Virus record (IMG/VR): IMGVR_UViG_3300044620_001883
Span: 32,001-96,000 of that record
Direction: 5' to 3' (one strand)
Length of the DNA stretch: 64,000 nt
DNA from: a virus
Taxonomy: Duplodnaviria > Caudoviricetes
Shown here: positions 7,943-39,582 of the stretch, piece by piece
Layout of the letters: each line of letters begins with the position of its first letter
Numbering within the stretch: position 1 is the stretch's first letter
Program-made: the position numbers and the translations under genes
The notes under the pieces: model-generated
The model's input: the letters and a program-made list of their open reading frames with translations, nothing else
The model's database searches: none
Told to the model about the DNA's origin: nothing

Positions 7943-8205
7943 ACAGGAACGTACAGTGGGTTGGAACATGCGTTCATCTACCTGCACACAGGTTGGAAGC
8001 GTTCGATAATTCCTCTCGCGAGGTTACGTACCGGACGTTCTTGAAGCATGTGGGGTTGTACATTGTGCGTGAGCTCAATGAGCAATTCGGTTTTCATCCG
8101 ACAATCAAGAATGACTGCCACATTCAGTACTACCGCGGCAAATGGTGCGGGCGTCCTGCTATGTGCATGATGCATTCCAGTATTCACCACATCTGGCTGC
8201 TATGA
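7939..8205 (+). CDS. Conserved-looking phage hypothetical protein
   Basis: SREVTYRTFLKHV...NDCHIQYYRG pattern; ATGA overlaps. Confidence 0.65.
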   Translation: MNRNVQWVGTCVHLPAHRLEAFDNSSREVTYRTFLKHVGLYIVRELNEQFGFHPTIKNDCHIQYYRGKWCGRPAMCMMHSSIHHIWLL

Positions 8206-8444
8206 AGAAAAAGACACCTAGACAAAAGAAGAAGCGCAAGGTGGAGTTCTGTCCCCGCCTCAAACCCTTTCGGTTACCGGAAGGGGAGCGGGGTCCTGTG
8301 GATCCGGTGACGGGCGATTTTGACATGGGATCCTCGTGTCATGGAAACTCAGCTTGCAGCAAGCGCGGTGTGAGTCACAGGATGCACAAGGTGACACCCC
8401 AAATGTGGGTCTGCCTCAATCCCGGCTGCTACGCCAACTGTTGA
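8202..8444 (+). CDS. Basic Cys-containing hypothetical protein
   Basis: ATGA overlap; 80 aa. Confidence 0.55.
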   Translation: MKKKTPRQKKKRKVEFCPRLKPFRLPEGERGPVDPVTGDFDMGSSCHGNSACSKRGVSHRMHKVTPQMWVCLNPGCYANC

Positions 8445-8450
8445 TTAACT

Positions 8451-11400
8451 ATGAACGGCATGCTTGAGAAACTCACAGATATGGAGCAAACCGAACAACC
8501 TTACCCGTCGTTTCCAGCGCCGACTCCCGAGCCGGAGGCAGCCACGCCGAAGGTGTGCGCTGAACCTTTTGAAGTGCCGGAGAATTGGAACGTTAGCAGA
8601 CGTCATCAGGATCGAGTTGTGGTGGCCGGCCGAGGGTCCAAACAATCCTCCATCATGTTCCTCTCCAGCAGTGTTCTGGAAGAGGAGGTGCTGGAGGAGG
8701 AGCAGGGTACCTACGGGGCTGTGTTCAAACGCAAACCTGCGTACTTGAAAGGCCCGCACGGCGCGGCTCTAAAGGACATGTGTATGTCCGTGGGTGTAGC
8801 GGTTGACAGTGACGTGTACTACACGGCGGTGTGCAAATGGTTGCTGCCCAAGGAGACACGGCTCAACCCCAAGGCAGGGGACATATCCCCCGGTCTGGCG
8901 TGTCTGCGGCGTGAGCTGACGGAGGTAAAGCCCAAGATTGTGGTGGCTTTCGGCAAGGCCGCCTTCGAGTTCTTGGTGCCGATACGGTTCAAATTTGGCG
9001 ATGCCATCGGGGCCTGGTTCTGGAGCGATGAGTTCCAGTGTCGCGTCATGCCCATGAACCACCAGTACTACGTGGCGGCCAAGCCTGAATGGATGGAGCG
9101 GTTTCGGATGGACATGGCCCAGGTGAAACAGGCCCTCGACGAATCTCGGGGTATCCTGGTCAACAGGATACCGTTGCATTACCGAACTGTCACGAACGCC
9201 GCGGAACTGCGGCAGCTTGTAAAGGACCTGCAACCATACAAGCTGCTATGTCCTGACTGTGAGTGGCACGGCAGGAGCCACGCATCAGGCCAGTTGCGTT
9301 CGCTCCAGATTGGCTGGCTGCCGGGGCATGCGGCGTACATCAGGTTCATGGACGACAAGCTCAACTACGTCTTTGACGTGGACTACCGGGCGGCCGGGGC
9401 GATTCTGGCGGAAGTGTGGGATCAGCCGGACGTGGAGCTGGTCGGACATCACATATCTGCGGATTTACCCTGGCTTGCGGAGTGGTTAGGATTGACCTGG
9501 TGGGGCAAGACAAGACTTGATACTGAGTTCGCGTACCAGTGCTGCAACGAACATGGTGACCGCGGGTTGGAGCGTATGTCCCTCCGGTACACAGATCTTG
9601 GCAGGTATGAGATGGAGCTGGAGTTCTGGAAGAAGGACCACAGGGCGGACGTGGAGGGTGGCTACGGTCTGATCCCGGATGAGATACTGATCCCCTACGC
9701 TCTCCGGGACGTTGACGTCCCGTTGCGTGCTCTGCCTTACATCGAGAAGGACTTAGAGCAGCAGGGCATGCTTGAGTACTACCGGACGATCATGAACCCG
9801 TTTGTGACGGATGTGTTCACGCAGTTCGCCATCACGGGGCTGCCGATGAACATGGAGCTCATGGATGAGATGCGCATGTTGTACGGGTTCGTCTACCAGG
9901 AGATGGAGCGGATCTTCCGCGACAACATCTACGCAGAGGCCTGGTTGCTACTGGCGCGCAATGCGGTGGAGATGCTGCCGAACCTCAAGGGGCTGGAAGA
10001 CGCGGAGCTGCGGCGCACGCTTGCAATATCTGTATCGAGTTCCTGGGGGCCCAGGCTCCGGCAGGTCTACGAGGACGCCATGGCCGACGCAAAGGACGCG
10101 GCGGCGGCACTGCGTGTTTTCTTGCAAGAGTCCATGGGACTGCCGTTGGAATCTCTCTCAAAGGAGGAGGAGCGCTGCATTGTGCAGTCCATTGAGCACG
10201 CCCACGGGGCTGCCGGTTTCAATTTACGCTCCGTGACGGACATGCGGCGTTGGTTGTTTGATGTGAAAGGTTACACACCAGTCAAGAGTACTGCCAACAA
10301 AGCCAAGGGGGTACCGGCCACAGACTGGGCAAAGGTGATGTCCTGGAAGCCGGCAAAACGTGAAGGTCTCGTGCCGGCCGTGGACAAACAAACTTTGCAG
10401 ATCCTCTCGGCCGCCAACCAGGATCCGGTATTGATGGAGTTGCTGGAGCTCAATGCGGTGGGCAATATCCGGAAGGCTTTCCTGAAGGAACCGGAGCGCA
10501 ACGAGGCGGGGGAGATTACGGAGGAGGCCGGACTACACGCGTGGGTGGCACCAGACAAGCGGGTGCATGGGCAAATGTCCATGACGGAGACATCCCGTCC
10601 GCGTGCCTGGAATCCGAACAGCCTCAACTGGCCCTCATATGTCCAGGATCGGATCCTGTCTGGGATGGCGCGCATCCTGGAATATGTTCACGCAGAAGGC
10701 AGACTTCCCGCCATTTTTCAGAAGTACCTGAAACAGAAATTGCCAGCTCTGCGGCACTGCGTGCAAGCTCCGCCTGGTCTGTGTTTTGTGGAGTCCGACT
10801 TCCAGACAGCCGAGGTGCTGGGCCTGGCGTACATTTCGGGTGATGAAAATTTGATCCGGATCATGACGGAACCGGATCAGCAGTTCGCGATCACAACCAA
10901 GGGGGAGAAGGTGCGGGTGGGTTATGCCAGCGACTGTGGTATTGCACCGCGAGCGCAGGAGCAGCGTTTCATCATGAGTGTGTGGGAAGAGGGCAAGTTT
11001 ATACGCAACGTTCAGGAATCTGAGCTGAAGCGAAATCCGGACGGTTCTCTGCGCCATCCCAAAGCGGATCTACACTGGTCCCTGGCGGAGATGTTCCAGG
11101 AACGCCCGCGCGAACTGATGACCAACAAGAAGGACCGAGGAGCCGGAAAAGCTGGCAACTTCAAGACAGCATACGGCTCGACGCCCGGCACACTGGAACG
11201 CAGTATTGAGGCGGACACAGGCTTCAAGCCGGAGCCCGGTACTGGGGAGAAAATCCTGACAGCTTTGGAGAAGCGCCAACCAAAAGCTGTGGCGTTCCTG
11301 AACGCGCAGGAAGACAAGGTTCTGGATCCTGGTTACTTGCGTGCAGCATCAGGTAAACTGCGGCACTTTGTGGCACCCCCGAACGTGTACGGGCTATCTA

Positions 11401-19110: not shown

Positions 19111-19670
19111 GTCTGACAAGAAACAATCCAAAGATCTCCCGGCGTGTGCTCATCTACGCCATGGACAAAGCCCTCATTCCCATGAAGGAAGGCACAGACA
19201 AAGTCATCGAGGAGCAGTGCCGCATTATCGGTACGGACCCAACAGGTGTGAATCTCAAATTCCCATGCACGCGGGCCGCCATCGCTCAGGCTGTTGGACG
19301 TAACGACGCCGGTAAACCGACACGCGCGCCGTTCCATTTGCTGCCGGAACACACACGTTTCCTCGTGTGTCTGGATGACGCTGGCCGTGTCGTGCGCACG
19401 GACACCATCAGCGACATCGAGCCCAGCCGTTTGGAGCGTTCCAAGGACGGTACAACCGTCGATGTGCGGGTGGAATCTGACGCACTAGGAACGCTGCGGG
19501 TGGAGAATTATCCGCAGCGCTTTGGTTTCGAAGCCGTGCGTCGGATCGTATCCAGCATGTCTGATGTGGAAGCTTTCAAGGTGGGTGATGCCTTCGGGGC
19601 TGCCACGATCTCGGCCATTGAAGGCAACTTGGTGCGTCTGACGCCCGAGGTGACGGCGGACGAGAGCTGA
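19107..19670 (+). CDS. Hypothetical protein
   Basis: ATGA overlap; 187 aa. Confidence 0.75.
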   Translation: MSLTRNNPKISRRVLIYAMDKALIPMKEGTDKVIEEQCRIIGTDPTGVNLKFPCTRAAIAQAVGRNDAGKPTRAPFHLLPEHTRFLVCLDDAGRVVRTDTISDIEPSRLERSKDGTTVDVRVESDALGTLRVENYPQRFGFEAVRRIVSSMSDVEAFKVGDAFGAATISAIEGNLVRLTPEVTADES

Positions 19671-19674
19671 GTTC

Positions 19675-19708
19675 GCAATACAGCGACCTTCCACGTTATA
19701 GATATTTG
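19675..19708 (+). promoter_or_regulatory. GCAATA-N15-TTATAGANNTTTG motif copy 2
   Basis: GCAATA 19675-80, TTATAGATATTTG 19696-19708; same spacing as copy 3. Confidence 0.65.
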
Positions 19709-20066
19709 GTGAAGAGATTCATCAACACGGTTGAGACCTGGGTCCGCAAGGGCAGCCAGGTCGCCCTGATCCAACTTGGTTGGATCGGGAAACCCCTCGC
19801 ACTATTGTGCGGGGTGGTTGTTGTAGGCGCACTTATCCTTGGCGGGTGTTCCGCCTTGGTTTGGGTGTTCGCCGACGGGCTGCGTATCCTGCTCGTCACC
19901 TTCGTGGTGGCGTGCATGGTGCCCTGGAATGCCGTCCTGCCTTTGTGCAGCGGTGTCGCAGCCCTTGTAGCGGTGGGAGAGTTGCTACCGACTCTCCTCA
20001 GCATACTGCCCACTTTGGGTAGTGTGTGGGTACTCCTAACGGTGCTGCGGGTCTTTCAGGGCCCGG
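19708..20066 (+). ncRNA. Structured leader/ncRNA L2
   Basis: At least 9 stems, e.g. GGTGAA-GAGA-TTCATC; GACCTGG/CCAGGTC enclosing GTCC-GCAA-GGGC; 11-bp stem 19765-19789; 9-bp stem 19976-19997; 12-bp stem 20001-20027; many G-U pairs. Confidence 0.6.
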
Positions 20067-20083
20067 AAAGGAGGTCAGCATGA
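19709..20083 (+). CDS. Hydrophobic ORF, possibly a by-product of the G/T-rich structured RNA
   Basis: GTG start, V/L/G-rich; overlaps L2 entirely. Confidence 0.3.
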   Translation: MKRFINTVETWVRKGSQVALIQLGWIGKPLALLCGVVVVGALILGGCSALVWVFADGLRILLVTFVVACMVPWNAVLPLCSGVAALVAVGELLPTLLSILPTLGSVWVLLTVLRVFQGPERRSA

Positions 20084-20859
20084 CAAAGCTGGCGTCCCTA
20101 CTAGGAGAGTTTGACGTCGATACATTGTTGGGCGACCCGCCCAGCGATGTACCTGCCGACCAGCCACCACACAATGGTGGGCTAGATCTGAACAGGATCA
20201 CAGGCGGAGGTGGGGATGGGGACGATGTATACCGGGGCCATCATCGGCCCTGCTATCAGTTCATCTACATCATACCTGGGGCAGGAGTGGTACCTCTATG
20301 GCGCCGCAAGTGCCTGAAGGAACTTCTGAGCTGTTGCCTGTTTCAGTTCCAGCAGCAATGGGAGCCCTGTCAGGAGTACCTGGAGATGTGGATGCTAGGG
20401 GTGACAAGTACCGCCAACTCTGAAATGGCATTCATGGTACCGGGCGGGGTGTCCGGGTGGGAGCACAAATCCATCTCAGAGCTCCGACAGCGTCATAGTC
20501 CGGAGCTTTCTGTGGTGACGTTGAAAATGAAGCTCCCACCATCTCCGTGGGAGCTTTGTCCTAACATCCACGTACCCGGCAGGGCCAGGAATGACAGCTG
20601 GGGAGTGCGCACCGTGCCTCTCAGCCAACTTCCCTTGGACGATCATTGGCCGCCCAAGATGGGGACAAGAATCCCATTTACCCCGAGCAGTACCGGCAGA
20701 GGAAAACTGCCAGGTCTGAACCTTACGGACAAGGAATGGGAGTGGGAAGGTGACTGGCGTCCAGGTGCCGGTGCAGTTGTCAATGCCGCGACGATCGGTA
20801 TGCAGGCGGGTGCCTTCTACACGGGTGTGTATGAGGATATGGGCGTAATCCCACGCTGA
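20080..20859 (+). CDS. Hypothetical protein downstream of L2
   Basis: Strong SD AAGGAGGT just upstream; 259 aa. Confidence 0.75.
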   Translation: MTKLASLLGEFDVDTLLGDPPSDVPADQPPHNGGLDLNRITGGGGDGDDVYRGHHRPCYQFIYIIPGAGVVPLWRRKCLKELLSCCLFQFQQQWEPCQEYLEMWMLGVTSTANSEMAFMVPGGVSGWEHKSISELRQRHSPELSVVTLKMKLPPSPWELCPNIHVPGRARNDSWGVRTVPLSQLPLDDHWPPKMGTRIPFTPSSTGRGKLPGLNLTDKEWEWEGDWRPGAGAVVNAATIGMQAGAFYTGVYEDMGVIPR

Positions 20860-20870
20860 CCTCTGAGGTC

Positions 20871-20901
20871 TCCAGCGGTAGGGGTGCACCCTGCCGCTGG
20901 A
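20871..20901 (+). terminator. 13-bp hairpin (terminator or processing site)
   Basis: TCCAGCGGTAGGG-GTGCA-CCCTGCCGCTGGA; no U-tract. Confidence 0.5.
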
Positions 20902-20931
20902 CATCCCCCATTCTATTAGCTATTGGTAAGC

Positions 20932-30074: not shown

Positions 30075-30476
30075 ATGTCTCCATCTGACCTATCTCCCGG
30101 TATAGCCCTCCCTGCCGCAGTGCCTGTCCTGGGCCAGGCAGCGGTGGAAGTTGTCGACACAGTACGTCGACCAGAGAAGTGGGTTAAGGGCAAGCCACAG
30201 CTCAAGGATCATTTTGTAAAAAACCAGCAGCACGTCAAGTACGGGCCCATAACACACAAGATCCTGAATCTGTTGGATGCTGATGACCTGGGGGCGCTGA
30301 ACGAGTTGTACGAGCAGTCGCATAATCCCACCGGGGACGGTGCTTGTATTGAAATCATGCGACACAGCGAGCCTGTCGTTGTCGGTGACAAATGGATATG
30401 CCACATTATGTTGCGCGATATCTTTTACAGAAAGCTCGATCCTCATGACTCAGACGACACCAATTCCAAACCCTAA
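30075..30476 (+). CDS. Hypothetical protein
   Basis: 133 aa in the structural cluster. Confidence 0.65.
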   Translation: MSPSDLSPGIALPAAVPVLGQAAVEVVDTVRRPEKWVKGKPQLKDHFVKNQQHVKYGPITHKILNLLDADDLGALNELYEQSHNPTGDGACIEIMRHSEPVVVGDKWICHIMLRDIFYRKLDPHDSDDTNSKP

Positions 30477-31944
30477 CGTCAAGCAGGCGGACGCTGCTAT
30501 GTTCCCCACCGCAGGGATGCCAGCCCCAGCAGGGATGCCAGCCCCAGCAGCGATGCCAGCCCCAGCAGCGGCTCCCGCCCCTCCCGCCCCTGCCGCCCCT
30601 GTGGGAACCCACGACACTCATGTCAACCCAGGGTTCCTTGCCCGCATGCTGCTTGGAGGTCTGGTCGCCGGCGGCGGGGTAGGACTTCTGACCGCGTTGC
30701 TTCGGCAGCGGAACGCCATCGTGGAGGACAAAAACGAGGCAGCCGATTCTGACTTGGAGCTGCAACTACCGGCGAGACTTCGCAAGCAGGCCTCAGGTTT
30801 TTCTCAACTCATGAACCTGGCGGCCCCCGCCGGGGAGTGGTTCAATGAGAAAATGGCACCGGCTGAGCAGTACGTGCAGTCACCAATGCCCGCGGCAGGA
30901 AAACAACCACTGAGCGTGTGGGACTACATGTTGGGTGGTGCAGCGTTCCCCCTGGCTGCGCTGGGCGGGTTGCAGCTGACACGCAAGGCCTACCAAGGCT
31001 GGCGCGAGCGGGACGTGAAAGACAGGCTTGCGGAACAGCAGTCGCGCTACATGGCGGCGCTGCAGGCCGAAGCTGAAGGTACAAAGGAGGCGGCAGACGG
31101 GCGAGGCTTGAGTATGCCGCAGATCGCCGCTCTTGCGATTGGCGGCATACCGTTACTGACAGCCCTGACGTCGGGCTTGCTGACGGATCGTTTTCTGGAC
31201 CAGCAATTCCCGCTCAAACCCAAGATGCAGGCCCCGGTGAACCGAGTGCGTGTCGGGTTTGGGGAAGACCCGGCAGCAGAGGAGGAGGAAGACACGGAGG
31301 CTTTCAAGAAAGCATCCGACGCCCTGGTACATGTGGCTCTCCAGTTTGAAAAGCTTGCAGCCGATGCCGGTGTCAAAGCCGTCATCGCTGCAGTGGGACA
31401 CGGGATGCTCGATGACCTGGAACGTCATCAGTTCAAATATGGTTCGGACGCCATGCTGGATCTGGCCCAAGGAGCCAACCTTGAGTTGCCGTCGGATCCT
31501 TTGGTCAAGTGCGCAGCTGTGCGGGTCGCGGTGCAGTCTGGTATTGGGCCTGCTCTGATGCTCATGTCTGCCGGTGTTTTCGCTAATGCTGCACCGCACT
31601 GGCGCAAGCAAGGCGCACAGCTGGCGGAGTTCAACAAGACGGCGTCGCAGCTGATTAGTTGTACGGCTTCCGCCCTGGATCTGCATATCGCGGCACTGGC
31701 CGGCGAAGAAGTCATCAAGGCGGCGGCAGCGCAGGCTGCCCCACAAACACCGATGGAACAACTGCGTGCTATGCTTGCCCAACAGGGTGGCGCAGCAACT
31801 ATCGGTAAAGATGACGCGTCGCAAATGCACACGGGTACGCTACAGACGGCAGCCACGGGCTCCCAGTTCAGTGATTCCACACAGCAGGTCAACAGACCGC
31901 AGAACATCAAAGACGATATTGTAGACAACGTCCTGGTTAAATGA
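30445..31944 (+). CDS. Large KxA-motif virion/ejection-type protein
   Basis: 8 K-x-A motifs (KQAD, KQAS, KEAA, KKAS, KLAA, KCAA, KTAS, KAAA); Gly-rich hydrophobic helices. Confidence 0.75.
   Translation: MTQTTPIPNPNVKQADAAMFPTAGMPAPAGMPAPAAMPAPAAAPAPPAPAAPVGTHDTHVNPGFLARMLLGGLVAGGGVGLLTALLRQRNAIVEDKNEAADSDLELQLPARLRKQASGFSQLMNLAAPAGEWFNEKMAPAEQYVQSPMPAAGKQPLSVWDYMLGGAAFPLAALGGLQLTRKAYQGWRERDVKDRLAEQQSRYMAALQAEAEGTKEAADGRGLSMPQIAALAIGGIPLLTALTSGLLTDRFLDQQFPLKPKMQAPVNRVRVGFGEDPAAEEEEDTEAFKKASDALVHVALQFEKLAADAGVKAVIAAVGHGMLDDLERHQFKYGSDAMLDLAQGANLELPSDPLVKCAAVRVAVQSGIGPALMLMSAGVFANAAPHWRKQGAQLAEFNKTASQLISCTASALDLHIAALAGEEVIKAAAAQAAPQTPMEQLRAMLAQQGGAATIGKDDASQMHTGTLQTAATGSQFSDSTQQVNRPQNIKDDIVDNVLVK
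30511..30570 (+). repeat. 18-nt coding repeat (AGMPAP) x3
   Basis: GCAGGGATGCCAGCCCCA tandem copies. Confidence 0.9.
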
Positions 31945-32495
31945 CACCCAGCATTGCTGATATTATCTCACGCGCCCAAGAAAGTCTTGGGCAGGTATGG
32001 TTGACCAACTATCGGAGTAGCGACGGCAAAGTTGCGAATTATCGGCTGCAGGTGCATCCCGCGCATTTCTATCCGTCTCTGATCAACCAGACTATCGCCA
32101 TGTTACAGCGAGTCGCGGAGGAAACAGAGCAGAAGGCTGAGTGTCCAGCCCCGGCGGTCATGCAGGCTGCCGCGACGCGATTGCTGGGCACGTTACAGCA
32201 GCGGCAGGCCGCCTTTGAGGAGCAGCAGAAATCTGCTGCGGGTATGCCACCCGAGAACCCCAATCTGCAGTTGCAGCCAGACGCGACGCTCATGCTGCGC
32301 AACGTGGAGGTACTCGAGACTGTCGTGGTTGAAGAACCAGCAATGAAGGCAGGCAAACGCGCCACCGCCGCAAAGGTGTACACACCGGATGAACAAGCGG
32401 AGCGTTGGCTACGGGCCAACTGGCCGTTAAAGCGTTACGGGGCGTCTTTCAAACTTGTCCCTGGAAAGTTTAGTTCAATCGTACCAACCGCTTAA
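31941..32495 (+). CDS. Hypothetical protein
   Basis: ATGA overlap; 184 aa. Confidence 0.75.
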   Translation: MTPSIADIISRAQESLGQVWLTNYRSSDGKVANYRLQVHPAHFYPSLINQTIAMLQRVAEETEQKAECPAPAVMQAAATRLLGTLQQRQAAFEEQQKSAAGMPPENPNLQLQPDATLMLRNVEVLETVVVEEPAMKAGKRATAAKVYTPDEQAERWLRANWPLKRYGASFKLVPGKFSSIVPTA

Positions 32496-36944: not shown

Positions 36945-37406
36945 ATGCATGTCGCGCGACTACTCCAGATGGCTGATTACCTTGATCGTCTGGATCCGTC
37001 GCGTTTCACCATGCAGGCCTGGGTGCGCGTACCGCAGGCTCCGCGTTCGCACTTGATCAACCAACTCCCACCGGACAGCCGAGCTTGCCCGGTGGGATGG
37101 CTTCCTGACTTGGATCCTGAAAACTGGTGTTGGGTGGCCGTGCCTGAATCCTCTGAAGGGAAAGTGGAGTTGACCATCTACCCCGTGTGCAAGGTAGCCG
37201 CGGTATGGTGTGGGGAGGGACTGCAACCACATAACCTTGACCTCAATCCGGTGGTGTGTCGGGTGTGGCAGCAGGTGCGAGAATGGTTCGAGCTGGATTC
37301 GTTACAGCTGACGGGGCGGCTATTTGAGAGCAGTGGGTATGGTAATGGCGAGCCGGAACCGGGTCAAGTGGCGCGACGCATACGCGAGACAGTTTGTGTG
37401 CAATAA
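36945..37406 (+). CDS. Hypothetical protein
   Basis: RLLQMADYL..FTMQAW..ACPVGW pattern. Confidence 0.7.
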   Translation: MHVARLLQMADYLDRLDPSRFTMQAWVRVPQAPRSHLINQLPPDSRACPVGWLPDLDPENWCWVAVPESSEGKVELTIYPVCKVAAVWCGEGLQPHNLDLNPVVCRVWQQVREWFELDSLQLTGRLFESSGYGNGEPEPGQVARRIRETVCVQ

Positions 37407-37433
37407 CACACACCAACGCGTTATAGAAATTTG
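37400..37433 (+). promoter_or_regulatory. GCAATA-N15-TTATAGANNTTTG motif copy 3
   Basis: GCAATA 37400-05, TTATAGAAATTTG 37421-33. Confidence 0.65.
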
Positions 37434-37752
37434 AGGACGGCTACGCTTGGTGGCGCCTCACCCATCTCCCGAAAGGGCACGAACTGGGGACCTTCGGGTC
37501 CCCGCCTGCGTACTGGCTCGCTACCAGCACGCAGGTTTGTTCGGCTTCGGGCTTTGCAGTGACTTCATCGGGTCATGCATTTGGGGAAATCAAACAGGTC
37601 ATGGGTGACCTGTACGATGGTTCGTGTTCACGAGACCCCACAGGGGCGGGAATCAATATGGGGCGGCATACGCCCCCACAGGGCCCAACTGGCCCGACCG
37701 CTGACCTGGCAGTTACTACCAGGATCGTTCCGGCGAAATCCGGTTCCACACC
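37433..37752 (+). ncRNA. Highly structured RNA L3 (multi-helix junction + candidate pseudoknot)
   Basis: cUUCGg 7-bp hairpin, GAAA hairpin, 7+4-bp and 8-bp stems, long-range CACGAAC/GTTCGTG, loop ATGGGT complementary to linker ACCCAT. Confidence 0.7.
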
Positions 37753-39060
37753 ATGCAGAACAAAAGCAAACAGATGAGTCTCTCCAACATGTTCGCCCAA
37801 GGACTCACATCTATGGGCGCTCTCCTGGAGAGCAATGAGCAGTTCGCGAACCTCGCGGCGGCAAGACCGCCGCGCTGCCGCTTGACCAGCAGCTACGCAG
37901 GCCCCAACGATTTCACGTTGGAGGTCATCGGGGAACAGATGCCGGCACCGGCGAAGGTGGATGAGGCGACGGTGCGCCTCATGAAGGGATGGCTGGCCAG
38001 TCGCCAGGTCATCACGGGAATCCTTCAGGGGGATAACCTCCTGGAGGACATGTCAGTCGAGGAGGCGATCGATCTCCTCGACCAGCACCGTATCATTAAG
38101 CCCCGTGACAAGAAGTCGCTGGGCATGACCGTGTGGGAACATGCAGTTCCGCACTGCTTGTTCCGTCAGTCCCTGGAGTTCCTCCAGAAAGCAGGACCTG
38201 GCCTCCCGGCAGCCTGGGACGTGGTGGAACTCCTCGAGGATGACGACGGCACCCAAGTGGGTGTCAGCCGCGCGGATCTCGAGGACTTGATCAAGAAGAT
38301 CAAGGCCGTCGAGGCCATCGTGACGAACCTGCCCAAGATCGCAGGTCCGTTCATCCCGCTTGGGGCCGCGACACCGCGCCCCTCGCTGGACACCTCGGAT
38401 ATCCAGCGCAACACCCGCTGGGTGCCGCTGAGCCGCTGGGGTGGTACGACGGCGTTCAAGTTGCGGATTGAGGTCCGCAACGGTCGTATGACGGCCATGT
38501 CGGCCGTTCCTGAACTGGAGGGCGGTACTCGGGAGAAACCCGAGGTCGTCCAACAGGCGCGCAACCCCGACCGCCACGGGCGTCCACAGCTGACGCCCCT
38601 GCCGTCTCTTCCGCCCCTGGCGGAAGACTGCCGGTTCCTCACGGACACTTTCGCACGCCGGGAGGAGATCCTCCAGGCAGCGCCAGAGTTCGCGAAATGG
38701 GCAGGAGCGGCAGGGCTACCGCTCTTCCTGCTTCAGCAGATCAACCTGACAAAGTCGGGGAAGGTCTGGCTGCAGGACGTGATGGATCAGCAGCAGCAGG
38801 CCAAGGAGGACTTGGCCGCTGCAAAGGCTGAGGCGGCCGCCGCTGTGGCCGTTGCAATGGGTGTTCAGAACGGAGAGGTCGGCGACGATTTCTCGATTCT
38901 GGAGAATGCGATTTCGTCCGCACCGATTGCGGATGAAATCGAGATCGAGCCTGAGGTGATTTCGTCCGCACCGATTGCGGATGAGATCGAGATCGAGCCT
39001 GAGGTCGAGGCAACACCAGCTGAGGCCGAAACGACACCCGCCGAGATGGCAGTTGTTTAA
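37753..39060 (+). CDS. Hypothetical protein with acidic repeat tail, downstream of L3
   Basis: 435 aa, strongly C/G-ending codons. Confidence 0.85.
   Translation: MQNKSKQMSLSNMFAQGLTSMGALLESNEQFANLAAARPPRCRLTSSYAGPNDFTLEVIGEQMPAPAKVDEATVRLMKGWLASRQVITGILQGDNLLEDMSVEEAIDLLDQHRIIKPRDKKSLGMTVWEHAVPHCLFRQSLEFLQKAGPGLPAAWDVVELLEDDDGTQVGVSRADLEDLIKKIKAVEAIVTNLPKIAGPFIPLGAATPRPSLDTSDIQRNTRWVPLSRWGGTTAFKLRIEVRNGRMTAMSAVPELEGGTREKPEVVQQARNPDRHGRPQLTPLPSLPPLAEDCRFLTDTFARREEILQAAPEFAKWAGAAGLPLFLLQQINLTKSGKVWLQDVMDQQQQAKEDLAAAKAEAAAAVAVAMGVQNGEVGDDFSILENAISSAPIADEIEIEPEVISSAPIADEIEIEPEVEATPAEAETTPAEMAVV
38911..39006 (+). repeat. 2 x 48-nt coding repeat (ISSAPIADEIEIEPEV)
   Basis: Direct tandem copy. 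Confidence 0.95.
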
Positions 39061-39068
39061 GTGACCAC

Positions 39069-39122
39069 GGCGTGGGCCGGCTCAGGGGGTAACACCCCTG
39101 GGCCGGTTCCCGCCATCATTTT
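39069..39122 (+). terminator. Probable intrinsic terminator
   Basis: CCGGCTCAGGGG/CCCCTGGGCCGG 12-bp stem with outer GGCG/CGCC, then ATCATTTT. Confidence 0.6.
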
Positions 39123-39174
39123 AGCTATTGCGTCTTGCTGTGTACTGCTTAGATGTAAGCATCATATAGTACAC

Positions 39175-39582
39175 ATGCACTTCGATCCTCCGGAACTCGC
39201 CGTCATTGCCGACCTAATCTTGTGGTTACTCCAGGACGGTAACATCGCCGACCAAGTGACGCAGCATGGCATCAGCCTCCCGGATTTGAAGCTCAAGCTC
39301 CTGCAGGTACAAGAGACCAGTCATGACAGTGAACCCCTGTTGTTGGATGAACCAAGCAGTGATTACGAGGAGCGCAGACGCCGCAAGCCAGCCACCGTGA
39401 AGGAGAAATCACGGAACATAGCCACGCTGGTAAATTGCTACAGCAAGAAGTCGCTGACAGGTATGCAGCTACAGGAGGCTTTCTTGGAGTCCCCGAAGCA
39501 GGACCTCGTTGATTTTATCATGCTTTCACTTTTAGGATGGGCACCCCCACAGCAGCGGAAGAAATTCCCAGCGGTCAATTAG
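39175..39582 (+). CDS. Hypothetical protein
   Basis: ACACATG start; 135 aa. Confidence 0.65.
   Translation: MHFDPPELAVIADLILWLLQDGNIADQVTQHGISLPDLKLKLLQVQETSHDSEPLLLDEPSSDYEERRRRKPATVKEKSRNIATLVNCYSKKSLTGMQLQEAFLESPKQDLVDFIMLSLLGWAPPQQRKKFPAVN

Follow-up and report, generated by a model that had tools for sequence, protein, structure and literature searches.

The locus described here lies in a window of 64,000 nt (positions 32,001 to 96,000 of IMG/VR record IMGVR_UViG_3300044620_001883; Duplodnaviria, Caudoviricetes), taken from a linear virus record of 121 kb with 57% GC; proteins identical to its own also occur on one 200-kb contig, and the genome that hosts the locus is that of a lake phage of ~200 kb. 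A search of sequencing runs returned lake-water metagenomes as the best DNA holders of the sequence and listed no RNA run as a holder; the promoter is covered by a 210-nt contig whose source run is RNA by guess only and which cannot show transcription. The locus occupies the end of a replication block, ahead of a block of RNA polymerase β-fragment genes, and holds two overlapping genes of which the first encodes a small membrane protein (Table 1).

Table 1. Features of the membrane-protein locus and its surroundings (window coordinates)
Feature	Position	Strand	Remarks
RecA-like gene	14071		upstream replication block
RecQ-type helicase gene	17006		upstream replication block
Cys-rich 140-aa gene			upstream replication block
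187-aa gene	ends 19670		last gene of upstream replication block
Promoter-like motif GCAATA-N13-CGTTATAGA-NNN-TTG	19675..19708	+	boxes conserved, spacer free
Hairpin P0	19706..19725	+	8 bp; 5 bp if RNA begins at GTG
Membrane-protein gene	19709..20083	+	124 aa, orphan, GTG start; homology, dN/dS, open frame
Invariant GGTTGA and hairpin P1	19730..19762	+	7+4 bp, 3' AG bulge, GNAA loop
Stem (P1)	19735..19762	+	7-bp lower stem, AG bulge, 4-bp upper stem, GCAA loop
Hairpin P2 (stem)	19765..19789	+	11 bp; structure kept, sequence free
Hairpin P3	19795..19814	+	8 bp
Hairpins P4-P5	19823..19922	+	partly kept, ambiguous
3' stems named earlier	19925..20065	+	this phage only, unconserved
Stem	19976..19997	+	9 bp
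Stem	20001..20027	+	12 bp
Stem	20048..20065	+	7 bp
Shine-Dalgarno (SD) AAGGAGGT of partner gene	20068..20075	+	
Partner gene	20080..20859	+	259 aa, soluble, orphan, fast-evolving
Hairpin without U-tract	20871..20901	+	13 bp; closes unit, before RNA-polymerase-fragment gene
RNA polymerase β fragment	20932		downstream block start
RNA polymerase β fragment	22972		Pfam RNA_pol_Rpb2_3
Second full promoter-motif copy	37400..37433	+	heads different non-coding hairpin array, 37432..37745

Protein searches and contig look-ups recovered the syntenic region in five other lineages (L001, L005, L021, L030 and L024). The gene content of the slot varies between relatives; in all lineages the slot holds a hydrophobic ORF of 124-141 codons (GRAVY 1.0-1.4, hydrophobic 19-aa windows above 1.9) with a basic N-terminus (4-8 K+R in the first 30 aa). 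Homology of this ORF to the window's membrane protein is firm for L001 (70% identity, z 55) and L005 (35-39%, z 15), marginal for L021 (~30%) and L030 (z ~3 for both) and undetectable for L024; the orthology of L021 is supported by its RNA core and its partner gene (z 7-12). The orthologue set is small, with four independent orthologues only, and the RNA comparison covers four phages, namely the window, L001, L005 and L021. When IMG/VR was scanned for the ORF, for its neighbours and for a 20-mer from P1, L021 was the sole match; no relative was found among GTDB genomes, and blastn against GenBank phages gave a single 28-nt chance match; 13 metagenome matches to a 19-mer from P1 lie in unrelated DNA and were likewise set aside as chance.

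Is the 124-aa ORF a gene at all? A preliminary description of this DNA, which had correctly placed both the ORF and the strong SD of the gene at 20080, read the region as a G-U-rich structured RNA and the ORF as a possible reflection of the G/T bias of wobble-rich stems that gene callers would mis-annotate as a membrane protein. On that reading the whole 370 nt would be non-coding and the ORF a compositional mirage, for which one may cite that the window sequence folds throughout (z -6.1 overall, -2.1 to -2.7 in its 3' part) and that neither Pfam, PHROGs nor PADLOC yields anything significant for the membrane protein or its partner. Against it, codons 47-124 compared with L001 show saturated silent change under amino-acid constraint (pS 0.68, dN/dS 0.19; 0.52-0.81 and 0.03-0.14 in neighbouring genes); within codons 47-119, 21 of 28 four-fold sites are changed and just one of 32 replacements introduces a charged residue. 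Frame and length are kept in all orthologues, those of three related phages presenting an open hydrophobic frame of 124-128 codons. Nor is the region rich in G-U pairs, which make up only 22 of the 136 pairs of the minimum free energy (MFE) fold (16%) and one per helix in the four conserved hairpins. The excess of G+T (0.59) is driven by the protein: T accounts for 45% of codon position 2 and 15% of position 3, and an excess at the second position, not the third, is typical of codons for hydrophobic residues. The ORF is under protein-level selection and is a real gene, and the mirage reading is virtually untenable. A minus-strand ORF at 19696-20013 proved to be a mere antisense shadow of the real frame. 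Strong folding z in one G/T-rich membrane-protein gene, a point of caution, does not prove its ORF false.

The protein consists of a basic N-terminal part of ~28 aa followed by a hydrophobic stretch that probably forms three to four helices (GRAVY 1.2). An AlphaFold model is all-helical, does not determine the fold (pTM 0.29) and met only generic helix matches in BFVD and the Atlas; a search of the ESM Atlas by features gave no usable match. A holin finds no support: none of the six sequences tested matched a Pfam or PHROG holin family, BFVD gave no match, and the genes nearby encode a RecQ-type helicase, a Cys-rich protein and RNAP fragments, with no endolysin or spanin among them. An orphan holin is conceivable at most.

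The folding itself exceeds chance. The plus strand of 19700-20085 has an MFE of -193.2 kcal/mol, distributed over 14 helices, with z -6.1 and none of 100 dinucleotide shuffles as good (minus strand, z -4.1); this run and that at 37.4-39.2 kb are the longest two of the window, and the stems named in the preliminary description all recur in the MFE fold where they had been placed. What does not hold is the idea of a single conserved RNA of ~370 nt, as structure is conserved in the 5' ~115-140 nt only. The 3' stems lose 5 of 9 (19976-19997), 6 of 12 (20001-20027) and 2 of 7 pairs (20048-20065) in L001, through silent as well as replacement changes, and 16 of the 19 four-fold sites in 19925-20065 differ there; an ORF that is kept while silent changes break its stems is the very pattern that had been named as contradicting the RNA reading. 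Against synonymous shuffles the 3' stems score z -2.1 in the window and -0.2, +0.2 and -0.2 in the homologues, and 19925-20065 shows no combination of silent-site constraint and pair-preserving variation. P4-P5 are intermediate in position and ambiguous in score against the same kind of shuffles (z -3.3 in the window, -1.4 in L001, -1.8 in L005 and -1.4 in L021).

The 5' end behaves quite differently. In codons 1-46, two of 27 four-fold sites differ from L001, compared with 257 of 429 (60%) in four flanking genes (binomial P 1.6e-8); none of the 271 windows of 46 codons in the flanking genes falls below 0.28, and 19694-19772 (79 nt) is the longest invariant run between the two phages in 10.4 kb. 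Six of the seven L001 changes fall at the tips of P2 and P3. All four phages have the hairpins P0-P3 (19706-19814), in which double-sided changes affect five pairs in total. P0, whose 5' arm contains the start codon, shows one double-sided and two single-sided changes and no breaks in L005, and is a hairpin of different sequence in L021. P1 is identical in the window, L001 and L005 except for its loop (GCAA to GAAA in L005); in L021 it carries two double-sided changes (T-A to C-G, C-G to A-T), an AACA loop and the loss of its two outer pairs. P2 has a C(UUCG)G-type loop in L001, two double-sided and two single-sided changes in L005, and is replaced wholesale by an unrelated 13-bp hairpin in L021, whereas P3 changes in its loop only in L001, keeps seven of eight pairs in L005 and corresponds to a 12-bp hairpin in L021.

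Across the window, L001 and L005, 97% of the alignment cells are paired as opposed to 32-49% in slid controls; the three double-sided pairs that this comparison contains are suggestive only, being within reach of relatedness alone (shuffle control 15/500). In L021 the two double-sided changes of P1 and the replaced P2 come at the price of radical amino-acid replacements (W to R, V to W and similar). P0-P3 score z -3.4 to -5.0 against synonymous shuffles in all four phages. When a covariance model was trained on the window, L001 and L005, L021 was its sole match (E 0.003), and the genome gave no second copy. L024 and L030 have no detectable RNA homology to P0-P3, though their slot ORF is hydrophobic. 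Silent-site constraint and pair-preserving variation were both found for 19706-19846, and P0-P3 are under RNA-level selection. The preliminary description had also allowed for a dual use of the sequence, and this part survives for 19706-19846 only, where silent sites are frozen and pairs covary; the independent trans-acting RNA function that the term 'dual-function RNA' strictly demands may exist, as a candidate.

Could the frozen segment have another cause? An overlapping gene in the other plus-strand frames was rejected, as both contain stops. Recent recombination between phages, or a DNA-level element such as an origin or operator, would account for the 79 identical bases shared with L001, and the variability of the slot would fit as well; this is very improbable, given that distant phages show pair-preserving changes, plus-strand pairs that tolerate G-U, GNRA- and UUCG-type loops and a replaced P2. 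The 5' domain is a new RNA motif absent from Rfam: neither the gathering nor the E-value mode returned a family in the window, and the best local matches (E 0.3-3) are far under threshold (RNAI, 18 bits vs 47). Signal recognition particle (SRP) helix 8 and group II intron domain V, both considered as candidates for the element, are unsupported; a CRISPR-repeat mimic formed by P0 plus GGTTGAGAC has no CRISPR-DR match there, and pairing of P1 with the downstream hairpin, likewise unsupported, amounts to 5 bp only.

The promoter-like motif upstream is found by alignment at the orthologous place in six of six phage lineages. The 121-kb record contains two full copies (19675 and 37400) and a partial one at 1599; of 11 pattern matches, six lie on contigs of 31-34% GC with no downstream structure or homology and are attributed to chance. 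The motif does not contain the σ70 element TAnnnT, which would point to a phage-specific or alternative σ factor. We infer that it acts as a promoter, with transcription predicted to start at 19706-19709. Its TTG is followed by a purine in each of the 10 full copies examined, and in the window, L001, L005, L021 and L024 this purine opens a GTG or ATG codon (in L030 the codon begins two bases later); an in-frame start codon at +1 to +3 is shared by the window, L001, L005, L021 and L030. No SD precedes the GTG at 19709. Genome-wide, leaderless-type starts defined by TTG plus the hexamer motif are enriched (10 observed vs 2.2 expected); no peak emerged when -10-like hexamers ahead of ATG were counted more crudely. 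The membrane-protein frame is the only one free of stops across the RNA domain in every lineage, and the indels of L021 measure 3 and 15 nt. Taken together, the single open frame, the indel lengths and the leaderless enrichment point to probable translation of the N-terminal codons, and hence to a dual-coded region.

The alternative, that P0-P3 belong to a plain structured 5' UTR, with the protein starting downstream (at L33 TTG/GTG, V36 or L50) and the first 30-46 codons open by chance, appears improbable to us. It would explain the radical amino-acid changes in the P1/P2 region, and it has a parallel in L024, where a 17-codon frame runs from +1 and an SD-led GTG, 41 nt further downstream, is the start of the membrane gene. 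Initiation without an SD, moreover, usually needs unfolded RNA and is generally hindered by structure at the start codon (PMC3121790). It would leave unexplained, on the other hand, the single open frame with its indels of 3 and 15 nt, the start codon at +1 to +3 in four lineages and an N-terminus that stays basic (K+R 4-7, D+E 1-2), and the internal starts have no good SD ahead of them. How severe is the structural hindrance here? Opening the start region would cost 2.4-5 kcal/mol if the RNA begins at the GTG and 5-9 kcal/mol if it begins 3 nt earlier, within the 1-9 kcal/mol of neighbouring genes, so that masking of the start codon is modest and strong repression finds no support. In L024 the slot handles its start differently, with the SD-led start locked in a hairpin that takes 10-11 kcal/mol to open; there the 17-codon frame overlaps the SD hairpin of the membrane gene (L024:11297-11350), as it also does in L025-L029, and a T7 run joins it to the main ORF in the -1 frame, a possible case of coupling or frameshifting.

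The membrane-protein gene ends in an ATGA stop/start overlap (20080-20083) with its partner, and a GGAG-type SD with such an overlap is common to the window, L001, L005, L021 and L030. An ATGA overlap behind an SD is the usual layout for translational coupling. The partner is 58%, 36% and 23% identical to its counterparts in L001, L005 and L021 (dN/dS 0.14) and has two true relatives among 1.84 billion representatives. In L021 both products have diverged further (membrane protein 31%, partner 23% identity) than the upstream gene (52%). Such fast divergence, in a slot of variable gene content, suggests that the role of the two proteins may be host interaction, for example the exclusion of competing phages. 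A hairpin of 13-16 bp is kept in five lineages at the position of 20871-20901 and probably terminates a transcript of ~1.2 kb. Two further features were seen nearby: a 14-bp hairpin close to the partner start (20121-20151; tile z -4.5 in the window and -3.8 in L001, unstructured in L005), and a TTAG(C/G)TAT motif (20915-20931) that five lineages keep at 7-8 nt from the ATG, on the upstream side of the RNAP-fragment gene, and that may be a second promoter type.

The terminator-like hairpin raises the question of antitermination. In phage HK022, putL comprises ~70 nt in two stems just downstream of PL (PMC9378689); put RNA binds the zinc domain of RNAP β' and suppresses termination. P1-P3 might similarly bind the transcribing RNAP as a nascent-RNA element and carry it through 20871-20901 into the RNA-polymerase and virion genes. 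The locus is like putL and putR in having compact hairpins close to a promoter on a phage transcript, with linkers of 2 and 1 nt, a bulged and sequence-conserved stem, and a conserved hairpin ~1.1 kb downstream; the element does lie just downstream of its promoter, the promoter itself being predicted. The differences are that four hairpins spread over ~115 nt and overlap the start codon, instead of forming a ~70-nt two-stem V fold, that the promoter is not σ70-like and that the phage encodes RNAP pieces of its own. While putL and putR resemble each other, the element is present at only one of the two full promoter copies; tests for a match in sequence or structure gave no positive result, a conserved motif of its own precedes the RNAP gene, and the P1-P2 linker is 13 nt in L021. 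We regard a put-like role as quite improbable.

The interpretation that we favour, with guarded confidence, is that of a dual-coded 5' end, in which a cis-acting RNA domain of ~115-140 nt at the head of a near-leaderless two-gene mRNA would stabilise the message or set the dose or timing of the membrane protein, with P1 bound by a protein. The locus would form a two-gene transcription unit, consisting of membrane protein and soluble partner, with its own promoter and a closing hairpin. Transcription would start 0-3 nt before the GTG, leaving the mRNA essentially without a leader, and on such an mRNA any 5' control element must overlap the reading frame. The first ~115-140 nt would both encode the basic N-terminus and fold into P0-P3, which would act in cis: P0 would cap the 5' end and partly mask the start codon, P2 and P3 would matter as helices only, and P1 would most likely be bound by a protein of phage or host, being the only hairpin with a conserved sequence where P0, P2 and P3 are free to vary as helices. 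The probable outcome would be stabilisation of the 5' end, keeping or timing the dose of the membrane protein. The start site, translation from the first GTG, the binding of a factor to P1 and the regulatory outcome are all steps that we infer. The locus offers a clean natural case in which one sequence serves both an RNA structure and a protein, on what seems to be a phage mRNA of the leaderless kind; selection switches sharply along it (pairs kept in codons 1-46, amino acids in codons 47-124). It also defines a conserved promoter motif for a group of phages that is uncultured and whose RNA polymerase genes are split.

One argument against the cis-acting domain is that, at other sites, non-coding hairpin arrays unrelated to it follow the same promoter; the structure may therefore go with the promoter class and not with this protein. 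The covariance model of the 5' domain detects no sequence or structure homology to the array at 37432-37745. That second copy opens a segment (37400-39180) with a hairpin array of ~315 nt and an orphan ORF of 435 aa that is strongly structured within its coding region too, and the partial copy (downstream box only) opens a leader of ~250 nt with weak folding (1599-1863; tile z 0.3 and -2.7). The relatives G001 and G002 carry two motif copies each, several of them followed by long hairpin-rich non-coding DNA, and on L038, a contig of a related 122-kb phage, the motif precedes ~760 nt without a long ORF that is rich in hairpins (8059-8856; tile z to -10.3). Divergent from the second promoter copy of G001 and its ~450-nt hairpin array lies a 385-aa ORF (L032:340-1497, minus strand) that by eye is like the TnpB nuclease of IS200/IS605.

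Two further readings involve a free RNA. Early termination or processing near 19820-19846 might set the 5' domain free as a stable trans-acting RNA of ~115-140 nt that serves as decoy, guide or sponge, which would make the locus a true dual-function RNA gene. The invariant P1 core, a U/G-rich tail after P3 that scores as terminator-like, and the long non-coding hairpin arrays headed by the same promoter class in this phage and two relatives are consistent with a released RNA; it is nevertheless unlikely, as the phage record holds no complementary target (best E 0.28), Rfam and CRISPR repeats offer no match, and conservation fades gradually over P4-P5 with no sharp end. It is also conceivable, if rather doubtful, that the promoter class (GCAATA-N13-CGTTATA-NNNNNTTG) serves a few transcripts, all with long 5' hairpin domains recognised by a phage factor or the phage's own RNAP, and that here the domain was fitted within codons 1-40 of a membrane-protein gene lacking a leader while also working as a free RNA. 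If true, the locus would encode a dual-function RNA of phage origin, linked to an expression system that is new.

Dual-function RNAs are exemplified by RNAIII of Staphylococcus aureus, which encodes δ-haemolysin, and by SgrS/SgrT. The locus is like them in combining conserved RNA structure and the ORF of a membrane-active or hydrophobic protein on one transcript, and it does encode a functional protein; it is unlike them in that the ORF, of 124 aa, fills the whole element, with the structure inside codons 1-46, and in being phage-encoded and bicistronic, with no target in the phage record. The mRNAs of type I toxins (hok, txpA, bsrG) share with it a hydrophobic, fast-evolving membrane protein and a start within a hairpin of a structured mRNA. 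Such toxins, however, are mostly below 60 aa, with one helix and an antisense antitoxin (PMC6562991), whereas the proteins here are too large (124-141 aa), have several hydrophobic segments and are coupled to a partner gene; a scan for σ70-like promoters, which omits this phage's promoter types, detected none on the minus strand over the element. The PeSL cassettes of T4-like phages, composite units of a terminator and an early promoter that are repeated in hyperplastic regions (PMC4122927, PMC2839356), likewise have a constant promoter and slot genes that vary between relatives; here the conserved stems lie downstream of the promoter, in transcript and ORF, with 2-3 copies only and unrelated spacers, and a U-tailed hairpin directly before the promoter, as the upstream terminator of a PeSL would be, is found in L024 and not in the window. 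The cabRNA of staphylococcal phages, a liability derived from terS/terL and sensed by CBASS, is also a structured RNA inside phage protein-coding sequence (PMC10686824), as opposed to which the structure here is positively conserved, with covariation. PeSL and cabRNA are the looser analogies; the locus works like the structured 5' regions of membrane-toxin mRNAs, and it resembles dual-function RNAs in that structure and protein share sequence.

Some minor observations concern the surroundings. The upstream 187-aa gene contains a 12-bp hairpin (19492-19519; tile z -7.7). ARAGORN returned nothing at the membrane-protein locus and called a tRNA-Ser(GGA) at 31387-31463, possibly falsely, within a 534-aa ORF (30340-31944). 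At L024:5781-9995 and L044:4111-5778, relatives show a LAGLIDADG intein in the RecQ-type helicase and an insertion of ~1 kb that splits the rpoB-fragment gene in L044/L021.
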